Assembly (NCBI GenBank): GCA_002691205.1
Contig: NZHD01000020.1
Coordinates: 92,995 to 156,994, forward strand
Length of the DNA: 64,000 nt
DNA from: Deltaproteobacteria bacterium
Lineage (GTDB): Bacteria > Myxococcota_A > UBA9160 > UBA4427
Reading direction: 5' to 3'
This document shows, one piece after another, positions 1 through 7,649 of this stretch. A program made the translations under genes and the position numbers. Each line of letters opens with the position of its first letter. The stretch's first letter is position 1. Under the pieces are notes generated by a model. The model worked only from the letters and a program-made list of their open reading frames with translations, did no database searches and was not told the DNA's origin.

Positions 1-789
1 GTGAATCACAGGCAAGCCATCGAGATTCTCCACAGCGCTGTTCAATGTGGCGATTCGCATGAGGTCAGGAGCAATCATGACATTCACAACTTCATCTTCA
101 AGCTCACTCAAGATCTTATCTAGGAATTGGGATTCTTCACTCGATAGAGCCAGGATGACATAATCCACACGGTCTCTAGAGAGAATGGACTTGAGGTCGG
201 TGTACTGCCCAATCACATCCACAGAGCCAACCTTTCGCCCCGACAAGCCATTCGAAAGCGCACCCAGAATACGAAGCCCTGAGCCCAGTTGGCCTTGAAT
301 CCGCTCGATCACTTCCTCGGCCAGCCGACCTTCTCCTAAAACGAGCGCAAAGCGCTGATTGTACCCGCGACTACGCGCTGAACGAAGCACCTTCCGGAGT
401 ACAAACCGTGAGCTGACGAGAAGAAACGGAACCGTCGCTCCGAAAATAATTACGGCACCTCGAGAGTACGAGTAGCTTCGAATAAAGAAGGATAAAGCGA
501 GAAGGAGAACGATGGTCCCGAGAACTGTTCGACCAATATCCCAAGACTCCTCAACGAAAGTCCCCAACCTCTTTGCCTCATAGATCCGGTTACGTCTTGA
601 GAGCACGAACCAGAGAGGCAAGATCACACCCAGAGCCAGTGCATAGTCCTGAATTGGGGGCTGGCCCTTCGTGACCTCAAGTCCCGTCTCAAACCGAAGC
701 CAGTAGGCCAGCATCCAGGCAGCGGCCACCAAAACAAGATCCGCCCCCATAACGAGGCTGCGGAAAATTTCACTGTGGCGATACAGCAC
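1..789 (-). CDS. Undecaprenyl-phosphate glucose phosphotransferase (WcaJ-like), 5' part; runs off the window start
   Basis: Not in the ORF track; translated by hand. GTG at 789 after GAGGT gives MLYRHSEIFRSLVMGADLVLVAAAWMLAYWLRF, several TM helices, then RGYNQRFALVLGEG (CoA-binding-like domain). Confidence 0.8.
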   Translation of the reverse strand, partial: MLYRHSEIFRSLVMGADLVLVAAAWMLAYWLRFETGLEVTKGQPPIQDYALALGVILPLWFVLSRRNRIYEAKRLGTFVEESWDIGRTVLGTIVLLLALSFFIRSYSYSRGAVIIFGATVPFLLVSSRFVLRKVLRSARSRGYNQRFALVLGEGRLAEEVIERIQGQLGSGLRILGALSNGLSGRKVGSVDVIGQYTDLKSILSRDRVDYVILALSSEESQFLDKILSELEDEVVNVMIAPDLMRIATLNSAVENLDGLPVIH

Positions 790-904
790 CCATGGACCTC
801 ATTTAGAATTAAAACACTCTACAAGCGGGCGGCCTATCGCCCACCGCTTTAGGATAACGCTCCGAAGCTTCGAAATCTTCCTTTGGGAAATTTACCCGTT
901 TTCC

Positions 905-2140
905 TCAAATTCCCGCCTCCTCCGCATCCATCTCGATGGCATCGCGAAGCTCAGAAAGAAAGCTCGGCAAAGCCGAACTCACACGACTCCAGTTTGGAAT
1001 TTGCGGTGCACCCATGGGGTCTCGAACGAAGCTCAGACCTGCCGTCCGCAAGGCCCCCGAAAAAGTCTCCACTGCCACCTCTTCGGCGTGCCGATCAAAC
1101 TCGAGACCATTCAACTTCGCGTCGTTACTGAAGCTCGCAATCGCGTCCTGAGCAGTCCTAACGTATGAGGCGATCATTGTGTTCAAGAAGCCTGCCTCAA
1201 ACTCGACCCCATAACTGGCCAAATTCCGAATCAGGGAGGAGGCGATATCAACGACCATCCTATGAAGACCCGCGTTGGCGTCGTTTTCGGAAAGTTCACG
1301 ATGCTTATGTTCATAATTTTCGACGAGCTCAACCTGACAAACTCGCTTCAGCGCACTGTTGCGAAAGACCTCAGCCAACACGCCGATCTCTAGCCCCCAG
1401 TCCGCAGGGATCCGATTGGCTCGCACCAAATCTGTAGTCATTGAGCACTCTCCAGCAAGTGCGTAACGAAAAGACTCCAGGTATTCCAGAAGGGGGATGG
1501 GCCCCAACACCGCCTTCATCGAGCGAAGCAAAGGCATCATAAAAAGACGCGTCACACGACCGTGCAGCCGATCCGTGACTCGACTGTAATACCCCTTTGC
1601 AAACTCATAATTCATATTCGGATTAGCGGTGGGGTAACACAGCCGGGCCAGCAACTCTCGCTGATAGTTTCGAATATCGCAATCATGAATGGCGACCACA
1701 CGTGACTCTTGAGTCGCCAGCACGTAGCCATAGGCCACCCATGTCGCCAAGCCTTTTCCAGAAGGACCTGGATCCAAACCTTCCTCGCCTAACTGCCTCA
1801 TCAAGGCTTTGAGACGGGGGCCATCGTTCCAAATCACCACCGAGCCTTTGCCCTCAATACAGCGAACAGGCTCAAACAGGTCACGCATCTCTTTGAATTC
1901 ATTTAAGCCAGCGGTACCCGAAAGACTCACCACACATTGTCTCAGATAGGGAACCTGGGAAAGCTCATCTACGATTCCCTTGAGAGCTGGACCTCGCGCT
2001 TCCGAAAACAGGGAGGGCAGCACCAAGGCAATCGGCCTCTCCTCGGAGTAATCCAGGAGCTCTCTCTCTAAGCGCGGCAGATCGGGCTTTCCTAAGCGGT
2101 GCAAGGAAGTCACCACGCCGGTCTGATGAAAATCTGACAT
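905..2140 (-). CDS. gpgS: Glucosyl-3-phosphoglycerate synthase-like glycosyltransferase
   Basis: MSDFHQTGVVTSLHRL start, LVLPSLFSE, DxD motif (IHDCD), AKGYYSRV, YALAGE, DWGLEIGVL; start moved to the second Met. Confidence 0.75.
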   Translation of the reverse strand: MSDFHQTGVVTSLHRLGKPDLPRLERELLDYSEERPIALVLPSLFSEARGPALKGIVDELSQVPYLRQCVVSLSGTAGLNEFKEMRDLFEPVRCIEGKGSVVIWNDGPRLKALMRQLGEEGLDPGPSGKGLATWVAYGYVLATQESRVVAIHDCDIRNYQRELLARLCYPTANPNMNYEFAKGYYSRVTDRLHGRVTRLFMMPLLRSMKAVLGPIPLLEYLESFRYALAGECSMTTDLVRANRIPADWGLEIGVLAEVFRNSALKRVCQVELVENYEHKHRELSENDANAGLHRMVVDIASSLIRNLASYGVEFEAGFLNTMIASYVRTAQDAIASFSNDAKLNGLEFDRHAEEVAVETFSGALRTAGLSFVRDPMGAPQIPNWSRVSSALPSFLSELRDAIEMDAEEAGI

Positions 2141-2182
2141 GGTGCAAGCGTCGCACTCTCCTGCACCCGCTGTCAAGTTCAG

Positions 2183-2560
2183 CTAGTCGACTGCCAAAGC
2201 TTCATATTGAGACGTGATCCGCTCAAGCTTCGCCATGGACACCGAATCAGTCCGATCGAATTCAAACCCGATATCGGTCACCCAAGCATCGGTCTCAGTC
2301 GCCCACGCCACGCGCCCTGAGACGGTGAGCTGCTCTTGACCGATCTCAAACGTCACCGTCAAGACTTCGCCTAATTCGATTTCACACCCGGTCACCTGAA
2401 ACCGAATTCCACCGGCACTTACGTCACGTCCCTGGGCCAAGACCTGATCTCGGCCCGCGGGTGCAATGGTTAAAACCTGATCGGTGGGAATTCGCGGATA
2501 CTTCCGCCTTTCGGGTTCGGGCAAACCCATTAAACCTTGTTGAAACTGATTGTTTTTCAT
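2183..2560 (-). CDS. Single-domain PilZ protein (c-di-GMP receptor)
   Basis: RxxxR (RRKYPR) and DxSxxG (DVSAGG) motifs, followed by GRVAW...IGFEF. Confidence 0.85.
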   Translation of the reverse strand: MKNNQFQQGLMGLPEPERRKYPRIPTDQVLTIAPAGRDQVLAQGRDVSAGGIRFQVTGCEIELGEVLTVTFEIGQEQLTVSGRVAWATETDAWVTDIGFEFDRTDSVSMAKLERITSQYEALAVD

Positions 2561-2630
2561 GATCTCATGACATCGGCGTTAAAGGCCGCCAGCTTAAGGG
2601 GTGGGCGCTGAGGTCGAAGGAGTGAAGGTC

Positions 2631-3713
2631 TTACGCCTCAAACAAGTCAAGCTGAGCGTCTTTTTCCCCTGAAATCGCAACCAACCCGGCTGCCACCACC
2701 CCGAGCGAACGCACTTCCGTGACCAGACTCACTTCACACCGATCCAACAAAGACTGGACCGCTCGCTCAAGGTCAAAGCGACTCCCGATAGCGACCGTGA
2801 GAGTTTCGCTCCGAGTCAAACGTGTTTCATCCACGAGCCCCACACGCAGCGCCAAGCGACTTGTTTTCAAACCATGCCGAGCCAGACTTCCTTCAAGGGC
2901 CGTAGATAATCGGGCCAGACAGGCATCCAATGGGCTCCGATCTCGACTGGGGAGAGACAAAGTCTCCTTACGGCTAATCGTCTTCGGGAACCGCGTCGCA
3001 CGAATTACCGAACGATCCCGCCCAGCAGCCATTTCAAGAATAGCCAAACCGTGATTTCCCAACTCCTGCTCCACCACTTTCGTATCGAGTTGCAAAATTT
3101 GTCCCACCGTACGCGCGCCCATCTCTGCCAATCGACTCGCAGTCTTTACGCCAACCCGCGGCAAACGCGAAAGCGAGAGTGGCCCAAGAAAAGCCGCAAC
3201 ATCTGGAGCCTCAACCCATCCAATGCCCTGCTCGCCCGACTCCTCAGCTGCCAAACGTGCCAACATCTTTGAGGGAGCAATCCCGAGCTGAAGCGGAAGC
3301 CCCACCTCCGACCAAGTCAGCCGTACTACTTCTTCTGCCCAACTTGACACATCATGGGCTCGGACCGGGAGCGAACTATACACTTCGCCCAAACTCCCTA
3401 GTTCTAACTTTTGAAGATTTTCCCTCAGACAGCGCACGAGTACACTCGAAACTTCACGATAAAGATCCATACGAGTTGGGCGCACAATCGCATCGGGGCA
3501 AAGCTCAGCCGCCTCGAGCATCGTCATTCCTACGGAAACGCCGACATCTTGCGCTTGCCGGCTCGCCGATTGCACTTTCCCTTTTTTGCCTGGGTCACCT
3601 CCAACGAGGATAGGCTGGCCCACCAGTTTATCATCGGCGCGACGTTCCACCTCGGCATAGAAGTTAGAAACACCCGCAAAAACAATTCTCGCCCTCGACC
3701 CAACGGCTTTCAT
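2631..3713 (-). CDS. DinB/Y-family DNA polymerase homologue lacking catalytic acidic residues (probable pseudo-polymerase)
   Basis: FYAxVE, GIAPSKMLARLA, LPRVGVKTASRL, little-finger region and C-terminal QLDLF are present, but DMD is GVS and SLDE is SLGE. Confidence 0.85.
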   Translation of the reverse strand: MKAVGSRARIVFAGVSNFYAEVERRADDKLVGQPILVGGDPGKKGKVQSASRQAQDVGVSVGMTMLEAAELCPDAIVRPTRMDLYREVSSVLVRCLRENLQKLELGSLGEVYSSLPVRAHDVSSWAEEVVRLTWSEVGLPLQLGIAPSKMLARLAAEESGEQGIGWVEAPDVAAFLGPLSLSRLPRVGVKTASRLAEMGARTVGQILQLDTKVVEQELGNHGLAILEMAAGRDRSVIRATRFPKTISRKETLSLPSRDRSPLDACLARLSTALEGSLARHGLKTSRLALRVGLVDETRLTRSETLTVAIGSRFDLERAVQSLLDRCEVSLVTEVRSLGVVAAGLVAISGEKDAQLDLFEA

Positions 3714-6316
3714 CGAGTGGGCTCCAAGATGAGACGAGCGGTTGTCTCGTCCTCAACGAGCACTCGACTCATAAGCAGCAGGCCCGGCCGGCCCTTTGCC
3801 CAACCTTCCAACCCATCTCCGAAATGTGCACTCTCAGGGAATTCAGACTGACCAGGCGCCAAACTCGTCAGCATCCGGTCCGGAGCCGACAGGTCTACAG
3901 CCATCCGATAGAGGGTCGCTCTATCCGTTTGGAAATCTTCAGAGATTCCGAAAGCCGTTGAAGATAACGTGGCGTCCCCTCCGCCGACTCGGAGTTCAGG
4001 CAGTTGAAGAGAGCCAGAGGGGTCCGGCCCAAAGGCTTCAAACTCGAGACCATGCAGGCCTCCCCACTGCCAGTCTCGACGATCCGGCCCCAACCGTTGT
4101 GACAGCACAACCCATGTCTGTCTGAGCCCCTCATGCACGATTCGCGTGACGTGGTCTCGGTCGGTCCACCCTCCGGCTTCCATACGACGATCTGCAGCCA
4201 CCAAAACCCGCGCCACCAGCGACTGGGGGCGAACGCCGGGTAAAGCCAAATATCTTTCGAGGAGAACGTCTCCGAGAACAGGCCGAAACAGCCGATCGAA
4301 AATCGATTGGATGAGCACAGCGTAGGCTGCGGCTCCCTGACTTGAAGCCGAGAGCTCTCCATCCCAACGAGACAAAATAGACAGGATTTCCTTGGCCTCC
4401 GGACGAAGGGGAGCAACTTGATTTGCGATACTCGATATGGCAGGGACGACTTCGGTCGCCTCAACGTCGCGCACGTCCACTACTAATTCGGCTGCGCTCC
4501 GCAGATCAAGCCTTTCCGGAATTTGATTCGCTCCGGAGCCTTCAAATTCATTCGCCATCATTTCGATTAATATCCGCTCGAGACGTCGCTGGCGAACACC
4601 CGGCTGCCAAGACCATTCAATTTCTGCACGACTTAAACCTGCAGAAAGTCCGCCGTCGGCCACGGCGACCCAAGCACGCTCCGAACGGCCTTCCCCGAGT
4701 GCCTCGGTACCAAGACGAATGATTGGCAGATCCTCGTAAGGAATGGGCCCCCGCCAATCGTAAATTCTCATACGCCCAGGAACCGGCACCAACCGAGAAG
4801 GCAATGTTCTCCGGGGTAGCCAACCCGCCCATTGCATCCCGCCCTGCCCCTGATTGTCCGCGTAAACAACTGCAACCACCGGCTCGTGATGTGAACGCAA
4901 CGCAGCTACGAGTCCAGAGGCATCCCGTGCTTGGACAACTTCTAAAAACGAGGCGATCCCATTGCCCGGACGGGAACCCGTCCACGCCAAGGAGTGGGGT
5001 GGACGTTCCGTTAAGCCACGTGGCTTCAAGCCTTCGCGAGCCAAAGACAAAGAATCTGAAAATAAGCCATCGATAAGGGGACCGTGGCGAGTCGAGCGAA
5101 TACGAAACTCCTCCTCACCCAACCCTCCCGGCTTCAATATCCCAATCTTTTCCACTCGCTCTTCAAGATCCACCCAGCCCTGACCATCATGGTAGATCTC
5201 TCCCGATTGACGCAATGTCTCTTGATAGAGATCGGCCGTTACGGCCCCGGACGGAAGAGCGGCCCAAGCCAAATCCAAATTTCGCCCCGCCCAGAACACA
5301 GGGACACCCGGCACGGTCACACCGGCCACATTCAGAGAAGCCCCCTGAAGTTGAACCTGATAGAAGAGCGAAGGCACCGTCGGTGGCAGTTGATAATCTG
5401 CCACTAACGATGGAGCACCGCTCTCTGTATACATTCCGGCCAGAACCCAAGCCGTGCCGCCAAAAATCCGAGCTGCCTTTAAGAAGTCGGAAGACCCGAG
5501 CGAGGGCTCGCCTCGATTCAGCCCGTCCGGTACGTCTCGATACACCGGAGGCGAGCCTTCTGAATCCACGCCCGACGGGTCCCCTGCAATGCTCGCCGGT
5601 CTAAACAATCTCGCCCATCGACCTCCGAGGGATCGGATCAAATCATCCAGAACTAACTCTGTCTGAATCCCATTGCTCGTCTCCCACGCAATCAGCTTCG
5701 AAATCGCCAAACTATCTACAGGACCCCAGTCTTTCTCGACTTTTCCTGAGGCCCCGTTCAGTTCCTTGGCCACCCCACGATCCGTATCCCTCAGCCCCAA
5801 CCCCAAATTGACCCCGCGTGAGTAGGCCTCAAGGACTGACCGAGTCCTCTCATCCAACCGAGCCCATTCCTCCTGAGCGAGCTTCGCCAGTCCCAAAGTT
5901 CGGACCAATTGGTCGGTTCCAAGAGCCGATTCCCCGAGGACCTCCGAGATCGTCCCCTCCGCCAAGCGACGCAACCAAAGCATCTGAGATGGACGGTCAT
6001 AGGCGTGGGCGAGCCCTAAAGAGAGCCAGGCATCCATATCCTCTCGCGCTTCCACGTGCGGAACACCTCGGCCGTCCCACAAAATCTCGACCCTCGAGGA
6101 CAGGCCTCCTGTCACCTCTAGAGTAAGATCAAGCGGCGTCGAAGCACGCTTGACCCGCAGGTACTCTGCCCCCCAGCCCAAACCGAGCACAAGAACCACG
6201 AGTCCAAGAAGGATGGCCCCGATCCTCTGCGTACCGCCTCGCTCCGCAAAACCGCTCCAAATGCGACTCAGATTCAGGCCTTCGCTGCGTCCCACATTGA
6301 ACCCCACAATTGGCAA
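3710..6316 (-). CDS. Penicillin acylase family (S45, Ntn hydrolase) homologue with N-terminal TM anchor; nucleophile Ser absent
   Basis: DGRGVPHVEA, GLAHAYDR, PSLFYQ, GVTVPGVP, GRN..LAW, RSTRHGP, PGQSE motifs; GSNxW reads GGTAW. Start codon uncertain. Confidence 0.85.
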   Translation of the reverse strand: MPIVGFNVGRSEGLNLSRIWSGFAERGGTQRIGAILLGLVVLVLGLGWGAEYLRVKRASTPLDLTLEVTGGLSSRVEILWDGRGVPHVEAREDMDAWLSLGLAHAYDRPSQMLWLRRLAEGTISEVLGESALGTDQLVRTLGLAKLAQEEWARLDERTRSVLEAYSRGVNLGLGLRDTDRGVAKELNGASGKVEKDWGPVDSLAISKLIAWETSNGIQTELVLDDLIRSLGGRWARLFRPASIAGDPSGVDSEGSPPVYRDVPDGLNRGEPSLGSSDFLKAARIFGGTAWVLAGMYTESGAPSLVADYQLPPTVPSLFYQVQLQGASLNVAGVTVPGVPVFWAGRNLDLAWAALPSGAVTADLYQETLRQSGEIYHDGQGWVDLEERVEKIGILKPGGLGEEEFRIRSTRHGPLIDGLFSDSLSLAREGLKPRGLTERPPHSLAWTGSRPGNGIASFLEVVQARDASGLVAALRSHHEPVVAVVYADNQGQGGMQWAGWLPRRTLPSRLVPVPGRMRIYDWRGPIPYEDLPIIRLGTEALGEGRSERAWVAVADGGLSAGLSRAEIEWSWQPGVRQRRLERILIEMMANEFEGSGANQIPERLDLRSAAELVVDVRDVEATEVVPAISSIANQVAPLRPEAKEILSILSRWDGELSASSQGAAAYAVLIQSIFDRLFRPVLGDVLLERYLALPGVRPQSLVARVLVAADRRMEAGGWTDRDHVTRIVHEGLRQTWVVLSQRLGPDRRDWQWGGLHGLEFEAFGPDPSGSLQLPELRVGGGDATLSSTAFGISEDFQTDRATLYRMAVDLSAPDRMLTSLAPGQSEFPESAHFGDGLEGWAKGRPGLLLMSRVLVEDETTARLILEPTR

Positions 6317-6370
6317 GCCCCCAGTGTAGCGGGACCCGCCCGCTCAGACCCAAAATACGAAGCCGGAACA

Positions 6371-6399
6371 TTGTCGATTTCCGAAGCGACCGGTAGAAT
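6371..6399 (+). promoter_or_regulatory. Sigma70-type promoter for pgk operon
   Basis: TTGTCG (6371-6376), 17-nt spacer, TAGAAT (6394-6399), about 50 nt upstream of the pgk start. Confidence 0.55.
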
Positions 6400-6449
6400 G
6401 CCGCGCCGGCACAATCATGTGCCTTTTCCCCTAGAGAGGGTCACCCGAG

Positions 6450-7649
6450 TTGCACGTCACCAGCCTGGATGATTGGATTTCCCGAGCGAAGGACACCCCG
6501 CGTTCCCTGCGAGGTCGGAGGGTTTTTCTGCGAGCCGACCTGAACGTCCCTCTTGACGGCAATCGGGTCCGAGACGACACACGAATCAGAGCCTCCCTGG
6601 GCACGCTCACCCGACTCTTAAACGAAGGCGCCAGCGTGATTTTAGCGTCTCATCTCGGACGTCCTAAAGGGCAAGTCAATCCGAGCCTTTCCCTCGCACC
6701 CGTGGCAGTTCGTCTTTCCGAGCTTATTCCCAACCCAGTCCACTTCATAGCCGATTGCATTGGAAAAGAAGCCCAAACCGCAGCGGCCGCACTTAGCCCC
6801 GGAGAAGTTCTCGTCCTTGAAAATTTAAGGTTTCATCCAGGCGAAACCGAAAATGATCCCAAGTTTGCCGAAGAGTTGGCTCAGTTGGCCGAGGCCTATG
6901 TCAACGATGCATTTGGGACCGCTCATCGAGCCCATGCCTCAACGGTGGGGATCGTCCACCACCTGCCCGACGCAGTCGCCGGAGACCTCTTGCGTGCTGA
7001 ACTCTCTCACCTTGGAGTCGTCCTTGAGCCCCAGCGCCCTCTCCTATGCCTGCTGGGCGGAGCCAAGGTCTCAGATAAAATGGGCGTTCTTCGAGCCCTT
7101 TCAGAACGCGCAGATGTTCTCGCCATTGGAGGCGCAATGGCATACACCTTTCTCGCGGCCAAGGGACATAGCGTAGGCCAATCTCTGGTCGAAACGGATC
7201 GCATCGACGACAGCCTCAGCATCATGGAGGCCGCGAAAACCAACCAGTGCAAACTCCTCCTCCCCACCGATCACGTGATTGCACGTGGCCTAGAAGAAGA
7301 CAGTGAGACCCGGATCGAAAGTGAGATCCCAGAGGGCTGGATGGGGGTCGATATAGGTCCTATGACCGCGACCGCCTACGCCCATGAAGCCAAGCTCGCG
7401 CAAACCATCATGTGGAACGGACCCATGGGTGTCTTTGAGATCGTTTCTTTTGCCTCGGGTACACGTGAAGTTGCTCAAGCGGTGGCCGGCGCTTCGGCCA
7501 CTAGCGTGGTGGGGGGCGGAGATTCTCTCGCGGCCATCAATCAACTGGAGTTGGGCGATCAAATCAATCACTTATCCACAGGCGGAGGCGCGTCCCTCGA
7601 ATTTATTCAGGGCCTCACTCTTCCTGGCGTCGCAGCACTGGAGAAATGA
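6450..7649 (+). CDS. pgk: Phosphoglycerate kinase
   Basis: RADLNVP, SHLGRP, LLENLRF, NDAFGTAHRAH, GGAKVSDK, WNGPMG, GGGDS, STGGGASLE. Confidence 0.97.
   Translation: MHVTSLDDWISRAKDTPRSLRGRRVFLRADLNVPLDGNRVRDDTRIRASLGTLTRLLNEGASVILASHLGRPKGQVNPSLSLAPVAVRLSELIPNPVHFIADCIGKEAQTAAAALSPGEVLVLENLRFHPGETENDPKFAEELAQLAEAYVNDAFGTAHRAHASTVGIVHHLPDAVAGDLLRAELSHLGVVLEPQRPLLCLLGGAKVSDKMGVLRALSERADVLAIGGAMAYTFLAAKGHSVGQSLVETDRIDDSLSIMEAAKTNQCKLLLPTDHVIARGLEEDSETRIESEIPEGWMGVDIGPMTATAYAHEAKLAQTIMWNGPMGVFEIVSFASGTREVAQAVAGASATSVVGGGDSLAAINQLELGDQINHLSTGGGASLEFIQGLTLPGVAALEK

Follow-up and report, generated by a model that had tools for sequence, protein, structure and literature searches.

What does a Y-family DNA polymerase do in a cell once its catalytic residues have been replaced? 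The question is raised by a minus-strand open reading frame (positions 2631–3713) in a 64,000-nucleotide stretch of DNA, hereafter the window, from a marine member of the Myxococcota (contig NZHD01000020.1 of assembly GCA_002691205.1). The frame encodes a 360-aa DinB-like protein, P0001, which we call iPolY. An earlier note, made from the letters of the window, had described it as a DinB-sized Y-family protein that lacks both catalytic aspartates and keeps a canonical clamp-binding motif. Each of these points holds, and we find that iPolY represents a conserved clade, present in nearly all sampled genomes of one class, whose members probably act on the β clamp without catalysis. The elements of the gene on which the argument depends are the following.

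3722–3725, minus strand: GGAG Shine-Dalgarno sequence, 8 nt 5′ of the ATG and within the 3′ end of the upstream gene, read from the sequence
3666–3674, minus strand: motif I codons for G14-V15-S16, equivalent to E. coli D8-M9-D10 in the alignment to 4ir1, both aspartates lost
3384–3389, minus strand: motif III codons for G109-E110, equivalent to E. coli D103-E104 in the same alignment
3234–3257, minus strand: degenerate counterpart, by residue comparison, of the KxxAKxASDxxKPxG nucleotide-phosphate-binding stretch, from R153 (K150) to G160 (K157)
2640–2654, minus strand: QLDLF β-clamp-binding pentapeptide, residues 354–358, two residues from the stop

The family assignment of iPolY is clear from its domains, since it matches Pfam IMS (2.9e-26) and IMS_C (3.6e-11) and, more weakly, HhH. 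The NCBIfam DinB models match it from end to end, all far under their curated cut-offs (168 vs 389 bits; 165 vs 256), and the UmuC model gives 36 bits only. Residue equivalences were taken from a phmmer alignment to E. coli DinB structures (4ir1, E 3e-30). In this alignment motif I of iPolY, IVFAGVSNFY, pairs with IIHVDMDCFF, and motif III, SLGEVY, pairs with SLDEAY. D8 is thus replaced by G14 (codon 3674–3672), D10 by S16 and D103 by G109 (codon 3389–3387), and E104 is retained as E110. The ligands of the deoxynucleoside triphosphate (dNTP) phosphates are gone as well (Y46 to R52, R49 to Q55, K157 to G160), and K150 has become R153. The coordinates and residues given for the two aspartates in the earlier note were all correct, and its list of lost pocket residues stands as far as it went; the loss extends further than listed, to D10, K157 and K150. 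The C terminus, ...DAQLDLFEA, is as the note had read it.

These replacements are not peculiar to one protein. A protein search with iPolY returned ~55 clusters at 36–59% identity, all of 340–383 aa, the few named members all coming from Myxococcota metagenome-assembled genomes; below them identity falls to 34% or less, where canonical DinBs start. A profile search of 1.84 billion representatives placed only ~30 clade-type clusters (at 50% identity) ahead of canonical DinBs. We compared residues in an alignment of 54 clade sequences (A2) and, more widely, between 85 clade sequences and 165 canonical DinBs, the latter defined by an intact D-D-E set. In A2 the D8 position is occupied by Glu in 35 sequences, Ala in nine, Asp in five, Val in two, and Gly and Cys in one each; D10 is replaced by Pro in 50 of 54; D103 is replaced by Gly (46), Glu (4), Ala (3) or Gln (1) and is Asp in none; and E104 is mainly Ala. 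The canonical DinBs have Asp at D8 and D103 in 100% and at D10 in 99%. All six metal- and dNTP-site residues that are 99–100% conserved in the 165 DinBs (D8, D10, Y46, D103, E104 and K157) are replaced in the 85-sequence clade. At K157, which is Lys in 100% of canonical DinBs, only 5% of the clade is basic; the R49 position is basic in only half, and K150 is Arg. The complete D8-D103-E104 triad occurs in no clade sequence, close orthologues of iPolY included, which agrees with the view in the earlier note that this is a distinct, catalytically disabled paralogue.

What has been kept in the clade is equally consistent. Q, L, L and F of the clamp motif QLxLF are invariant in 54 of 54 sequences of A2, after a linker that varies, and the clade shares with the 165 DinBs the hydrophobic core, the HhH GVG, K146, Y79, F12 and the TR motif of the little finger. 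Newly conserved residues have appeared at K43, Q48, T80, R86, R238 and R286, and motif I has the consensus AEVPDFYAEVERRxxPxL. In public records these proteins are labeled "DNA polymerase IV" or "hypothetical protein"; where the former label is used, the count of translesion synthesis (TLS) polymerases in these genomes is inflated by one.

The clade profile was run against 401 Myxococcota genomes. Of the 78 that belong to the window's class, ~73 have a clade-type match, with all 11 sampled families represented, and the best-scoring matches translated from other Myxococcota classes were canonical in every case (22 of 22; VDMDAF, SLDEAY, KPxG). Within the sampled Myxococcota the clade occurs in no other class than that of the window, in which it is nearly universal. 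In the deepest family, f11, motif I reads FHVPGFY or FVLVPGLY, motif III reads GLDSSY, GVDGTF or GLEGNF, and the tail is QLRLF; by these motifs the f11 members are predicted to be inactive as well. In the trees the clade forms a monophyletic group with a long stem (SH-aLRT 97–100 in quick trees, 93/96 in the careful tree) and lies apart from the class's own DinB clade.

The gene itself is well attested. The locus was found in at least 20 marine metagenome runs, and contigs from runs of three different studies carry the gene with 0 differences. A strain variant in a fourth run has eight single-nucleotide polymorphisms in the coding sequence, six synonymous and two non-synonymous, none of them at catalytic codons. 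Reading frames are intact in iPolY and in every clade relative checked. The catalytic losses are genuine, due neither to chance nor to sequencing error, and the sequences indicate that the clade has been conserved over the long term under purifying selection, beside active DinB and ImuB. Two apparent irregularities among the relatives were set aside. The in-frame TGA or TAG flagged in many of them, which might have marked pseudogenes, are the natural stops right after QLxLF, the model running on for one or two positions. A 521-aa IMS-PilZ "fusion" (P0043, locus L010, 6001–7566) is an artefact that results from a frameshift within a run of G: in a three-frame translation the little finger and QLDLF go on in frame +1 and PilZ lies in the original frame.

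An AlphaFold2 model of iPolY, computed with A2 as the alignment, has a mean predicted local distance difference test score (pLDDT) of 91.4 and a predicted template modeling score of 0.83, with low pLDDT in the first five and the last ~10 residues (~50 in the tail). Its top Foldseek matches are DinB, Dpo4, Dbh and MsDpo4, each over ~345 columns with probability 1.0. In the model, then, iPolY retains the full four-domain Y-family fold of palm, fingers, thumb and little finger. The low pLDDT of the tail, the variable linker and the invariant pentapeptide together correspond to the usual arrangement of a clamp-binding motif. Basic residues that contact DNA are kept in part, namely K146 and those at positions 150, 180, 191, 241, 289, 300 and 330.

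The source assembly, which is 94% complete, contains three IMS matches including iPolY. One is an intact 442-aa DinB (contig C101, 10530–11858) with ADMDAF, SLDEAF and KPDG, and with QLSLF followed by a 60-aa tail; it is 28% identical to iPolY and scores 234 bits against the clade hidden Markov model (HMM). The other is a 529-aa ImuB (C101, 8915–10504), preceded by a 273-aa RecA-like gene, imuA, and with relatives named "protein ImuB"; it is 21% identical to iPolY (E 0.005) and scores 68 bits against the clade HMM. Two dnaE genes are present as well (1174 and 1086 aa), and dnaE2 lies on contig C43, remote from imuA-imuB. The earlier note had found neither imuA nor dnaE2 as a partner of the gene; this is right for the window, and the genome as a whole does contain both. 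Because the genome has a complete imuA-imuB and a remote dnaE2 with an ImuB of their own, iPolY is a third Y-family paralogue.

The imuA-imuB pair stands beside the canonical dinB in what appears to be a conserved "TLS island" (C101, 8097–11858), convergent in this genome; the same arrangement is found in seven other genomes (G073, G103, G223, G051, G243, G178 and G078). Just 5′ of the imuA and dnaE2 starts we noted near-identical elements, CGAACAAAAGACGAAA at C101, 8073–8088, and CGAAAACAGAGCGAAA at C43, 2655–2670 (GAAM-N7-GAAA). A loose form of the pattern, CGAAMAnAnnnCGAAA, has seven matches in the whole genome. This element is a candidate damage-response operator.

We favor the hypothesis that iPolY is a non-catalytic protein that occupies the clamp cleft, either as a gate for other clamp clients or as a tether, and we regard this as probable. 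In this scenario the third paralogue would go back to the common ancestor of one marine Myxococcota class, where a DinB-like (PolY-core) protein gave rise to it. Its metal- and dNTP-binding pocket would have been dismantled, so that iPolY could not polymerize. It retains the optimal-consensus C-terminal QL[DE]LF, the peptide by which Y-family polymerases dock in the β-clamp cleft, and some of the basic residues with which thumb and little finger grip the primer-template. The protein would then occupy the cleft, probably at a primer terminus, without catalysis, and would either gate the access of Pol III, DinB and ImuB-DnaE2 or tether another partner. It would do so without the RecA-NT and ImuB-C modules of ImuB and other described inactive Y-family proteins. 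From its terminal peptide we infer that iPolY binds the β clamp, and it probably also binds primer-template DNA; a role as clamp adaptor or TLS competitor, as the earlier note had suggested, is plausible in view of the unchanging QLxLF tail and the preserved fold. There is a functional analogy in E. coli, where catalytically dead DinB (e.g., D103N) and over-produced DinB reportedly act as a clamp-dependent brake on replication: a DinB that binds clamp and DNA and does not synthesize may interfere with other clamp clients. Those are laboratory mutants or over-expression states, whereas iPolY is a natural, conserved gene.

Several observations weigh against this hypothesis. The little finger has a net charge of +1.7 against +4.4 in DinB, and basic residues conserved in DinB have been lost (R232, R273 and K278, and in iPolY additionally K291), by which DNA binding may be weakened or changed. 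The lower charge and the newly conserved residues hint at altered DNA contacts or at a new partner surface. The element found upstream of imuA and dnaE2 is absent from the iPolY operon, and there is accordingly no sign of co-regulation with the mutasome; this is a weak negative, the LexA box of the lineage being undefined. None of the words sampled from the locus occurs in three metatranscriptomes from the same samples. Finally, no DNA-related function is found among the conserved neighbors, an acylase-like protein, a PilZ protein, a GpgS-like protein and an exopolysaccharide (EPS) sugar transferase, and the operon context therefore gives no support to a role in replication or repair. The neighbors are as follows.

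3710–6316, minus strand: penicillin-acylase-family protein, 868 aa, membrane-anchored, with the Ser nucleophile replaced by Gly (Pfam Penicil_amidase, 6.9e-134)
2183–2560, minus strand: stand-alone PilZ protein, 125 aa, downstream of iPolY after a 70-nt gap (Pfam PilZ, 1.2e-14)
905–2176, minus strand: GpgS-like glycosyltransferase, 423 aa (full-length match to NCBIfam NF040724, 337 bits against a cut-off of 700)
1–789, minus strand: WcaJ/EPS-type polyprenyl-phosphate sugar phosphotransferase, running off the window (TIGR03023 and TIGR03025, ~124 bits, partial)

Gene order was compared in relatives at ~40–45% identity, in genus g4 and in family f11. Next to a divergent secG-tpiA-pgk group, these relatives have the acylase-like gene, the dead polymerase, PilZ directly 3′ of it, a GpgS-like gene of ~410 (407–415) aa, and a WcaJ-type sugar transferase with CoA_binding_3 and Bac_transf domains. 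The acylase-like gene lies upstream of iPolY and overlaps it by 4 bp (ATGA), as it also does in the four loci whose coordinates were read (L007, L008, L010 and L011). Compared with the D-succinylase 7eby, the acylase-like protein has GGTAW in place of GSNNW, which includes the N-terminal Ser of the β chain, and ADYQ in place of NDPH. Replacement of the nucleophile by Gly or Ala and loss of NDPH are common to the taxonomic order of the window, and f11 (L045) keeps GS.. and NDPH; with the nucleophile and the polymerase site both lost, two consecutive genes in that order are pseudo-enzyme-like. The translation begins with a transmembrane helix, and the protein is probably periplasmic. The PilZ protein has intact motifs for binding cyclic di-GMP (c-di-GMP), RRKYPR (RxxxR) and DVSAGG (DxSxxG), and these are kept in six orthologues. 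Pfam gives no match to the 423-aa GpgS-like protein, and NF040724 models the archaeal-type glucosyl-3-phosphoglycerate synthase; the protein is perhaps a diverged glycosyltransferase for a compatible solute or a glycolipid. In a scan of 700–6600 no terminator separated any of the four genes from the acylase-like to the GpgS-like one, and no sigma-70-like promoter was found for the operon, results that are uninformative for this phylum. Positional orthology with an active DinB was considered and received no support: in another class the neighbors of dinB are an SF1 helicase and a sigma-54 activator (L049), and the canonical DinB of L048, also from another Myxococcota class, has no recognizable neighbors.

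This neighborhood is the ground for supposing that the fold has been recruited to a role away from DNA, within the surrounding c-di-GMP/envelope-polysaccharide module, and that QLxLF binds a partner other than DnaN. The order of acylase-like, iPolY, PilZ, GpgS-like and sugar-transferase genes is the same in the family to which the window belongs and as far down as the earliest branch of the class, the 4-bp overlap is conserved in the loci whose coordinates were read, and the loss of DNA-contacting basic residues of DinB together with the new conserved K43, R86, R238, R286, Q48 and T80 would fit a change of partner. We nevertheless consider this explanation unlikely. The terminal QL[DE]LF behind its flexible linker is the inherited clamp motif of DinB and has drifted towards the clamp consensus, and the HhH and little-finger TR motifs have been kept. 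An acylase-like protein that is probably periplasmic would be unlikely to make direct contact with iPolY, and in one f11 genome (G193; L046, 4446–6493) an insertion sequence with DUF772 and a DDE transposase splits the acylase gene and leaves the polymerase and PilZ genes intact, a hint that these are independent of the acylase. Gene order within a single class may, moreover, simply be inherited, and the genes could form a transcription unit passed down by descent, with no joint function.

Closer to the clamp hypothesis is the possibility that iPolY is a short, C-terminally truncated relative of ImuB that serves the genome's DnaE2 as an alternative clamp adaptor, that is, a variant of the mutasome. 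Most of what is known of non-catalytic Y-family proteins comes from ImuB, in which extra C-terminal modules make the dead polymerase a scaffold for recruiting DnaE2 to the clamp. iPolY shares with ImuB a Y-family fold devoid of catalytic carboxylates and a retained clamp-binding motif. The two also resemble each other in motif I: that of the genome's ImuB, LLVPDFPLCAERRAHPEL, is similar to the clade consensus AEVPDFYAEVERRxxPxL in VPDF...ERR, as are the Myxococcota ImuBs. Furthermore, dnaE2 is remote from imuAB and hence not bound to a single operon, and ImuB is likewise near-universal in the class (73 of 81 genomes). In the best maximum-likelihood trees, with ImuB sampled from Myxococcota, Nitrospirota and three Alphaproteobacteria, ImuB is the sister of the clade, the joint node having an ultrafast bootstrap of 100 and an SH-aLRT of 99.

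The sister relation is not established by these trees. Most of its signal lies in the catalytic half, and support falls to 42 when only thumb and little finger are analyzed. Trees that hold ImuB outside DinB and the clade are not rejected by the approximately unbiased (AU) test: in the first data set such a tree is better by 29 log-likelihood units (p-AU 0.85), and in the second it is worse by 12.5 (p-AU 0.26). Attraction is expected between two lineages that have both lost catalysis. ImuB is thus a possible sister group of the clade, and what is robust in our trees is that the clade is not nested in ImuB: each is monophyletic (ImuB 100/99, stem 1.73), and iPolY falls outside the ImuB clade, as the earlier note had expected of a protein separate from ImuB. 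A placement of a single ImuB inside the clade, on a branch 6.8 long, had appeared in one quick tree; it was unreliable and was replaced by larger ImuB samples and AU tests. The gene content also argues against a mutasome variant. The chain of iPolY stops two residues past the clamp motif, so that it has neither RecA-NT nor ImuB-C, and its 360 aa, in line with the ~350–377 aa of all clade members, compare with ~500–530 aa in ImuB. A full-length ImuB already adjoins imuA in the same genome, where neither imuA nor dnaE2 is adjacent to iPolY; across the class ImuB mostly adjoins the canonical dinB, and the dead paralogue is always at another site. In four genomes (G108, G168, G173 and G188) iPolY occurs with no ImuB match, and the missing upstream element points the same way. 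iPolY is also closer to DinB than to ImuB in both identity and HMM score. We therefore give the truncated-ImuB explanation only a slim chance. A related possibility is that the clade may be a surviving short sister lineage of the ImuB core; if true, an inactive PolY of the kind proposed to have preceded the fusion that gave ImuB would survive in organisms of today, and in this way the clade may bear on the origin of ImuB.

The clamp-occupant hypothesis can be set against what is known of such proteins. In length class, four-domain fold, best sequence and structure matches and QLxLF-type clamp motif iPolY is like DinB (Pol IV); the clade differs from it in that the triad and the dNTP-binding residues are replaced and in that it forms a group of its own on a long stem, and iPolY falls under every NCBIfam DinB cut-off. 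In ImuB the RecA-NT motif and the ImuB-C domain bind ImuA/RecA and DnaE2 (PMC6511836; PMC11791113). Apart from ImuB there are further inactive Y-family homologs, which tend to be PolY-core-like (Timinskas and Venclovas 2019, PMC6511836; PMC12926913), and a 2026 survey of 3070 complete genomes found the clamp motif to be generally present in inactive PolY groups (PMC12926913). Among these, the scDinB2-like and Kyrpidia-type groups have a RecA-NT motif and occur with dnaE2 and/or a stand-alone ImuB-C (PMC6511836; PMC12926913). Our clade is similarly nearer to PolY-core than to ImuB, but unlike those groups it has no RecA-NT, its chain not continuing past the clamp motif, and its neighbors are acylase-like and PilZ genes. 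Both surveys drew on complete reference genomes, among which members of the clade may figure. No description of the clade turned up in a full-text literature search for DinB paralogues that are inactive, dead or pseudo-polymerases. Inactive Y-family homologs as such are therefore known already, and what is new is a "solo" inactive PolY, present class-wide in marine Myxococcota. The clade amounts to a polymerase reduced to its fold and a clamp peptide, devoid of a partner-binding module and yet selected throughout a class, and it offers a natural test case of what a dead polymerase on the clamp does alone, be it competition, gating or tethering.

A more specific form of clamp occupation would couple iPolY to the adjacent PilZ protein as a "clamp plug", linking c-di-GMP levels to access to the β clamp, either as a brake on replication and TLS or as a tethered adaptor. 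We consider this improbable; if true, it would be a previously undescribed link between second-messenger signaling and the replisome.

That iPolY might still be an active polymerase with non-canonical metal ligands seems to us very unlikely. E110, the equivalent of E104, is retained in iPolY, Glu stands at the D8 position in 35 of 54 clade sequences, and a few members keep Asp at one position. Single substitutions at D8, D103 or E104 nonetheless abolish the activity of E. coli DinB, and in iPolY two of the three carboxylates are Gly, the D103 position is Asp in none of A2, and the dNTP-phosphate ligands Y46, R49 and K157 have gone as well.

The weakest alternative is that the gene is a pseudogene in decay, was damaged in this strain only or was wrongly assembled. 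It could appeal to the window copy, which has the longest terminal branch in its subclade and a motif I more degenerate than any other, and is scarcely credible given identical sequence in three independent studies, a strain variant with six synonymous against two non-synonymous changes, frames intact in iPolY and all relatives checked, and a clade maintained since the ancestor of the class.

The window copy is indeed the most divergent of its own subclade (terminal branch 0.93–0.99), with G14 and S16 where the clade consensus has E and P. This divergence points to further relaxation or specialization in its genus. Besides Glu14 and Pro16, this copy has lost the clade-conserved Arg55 and, at the K291 position, the basic residue.

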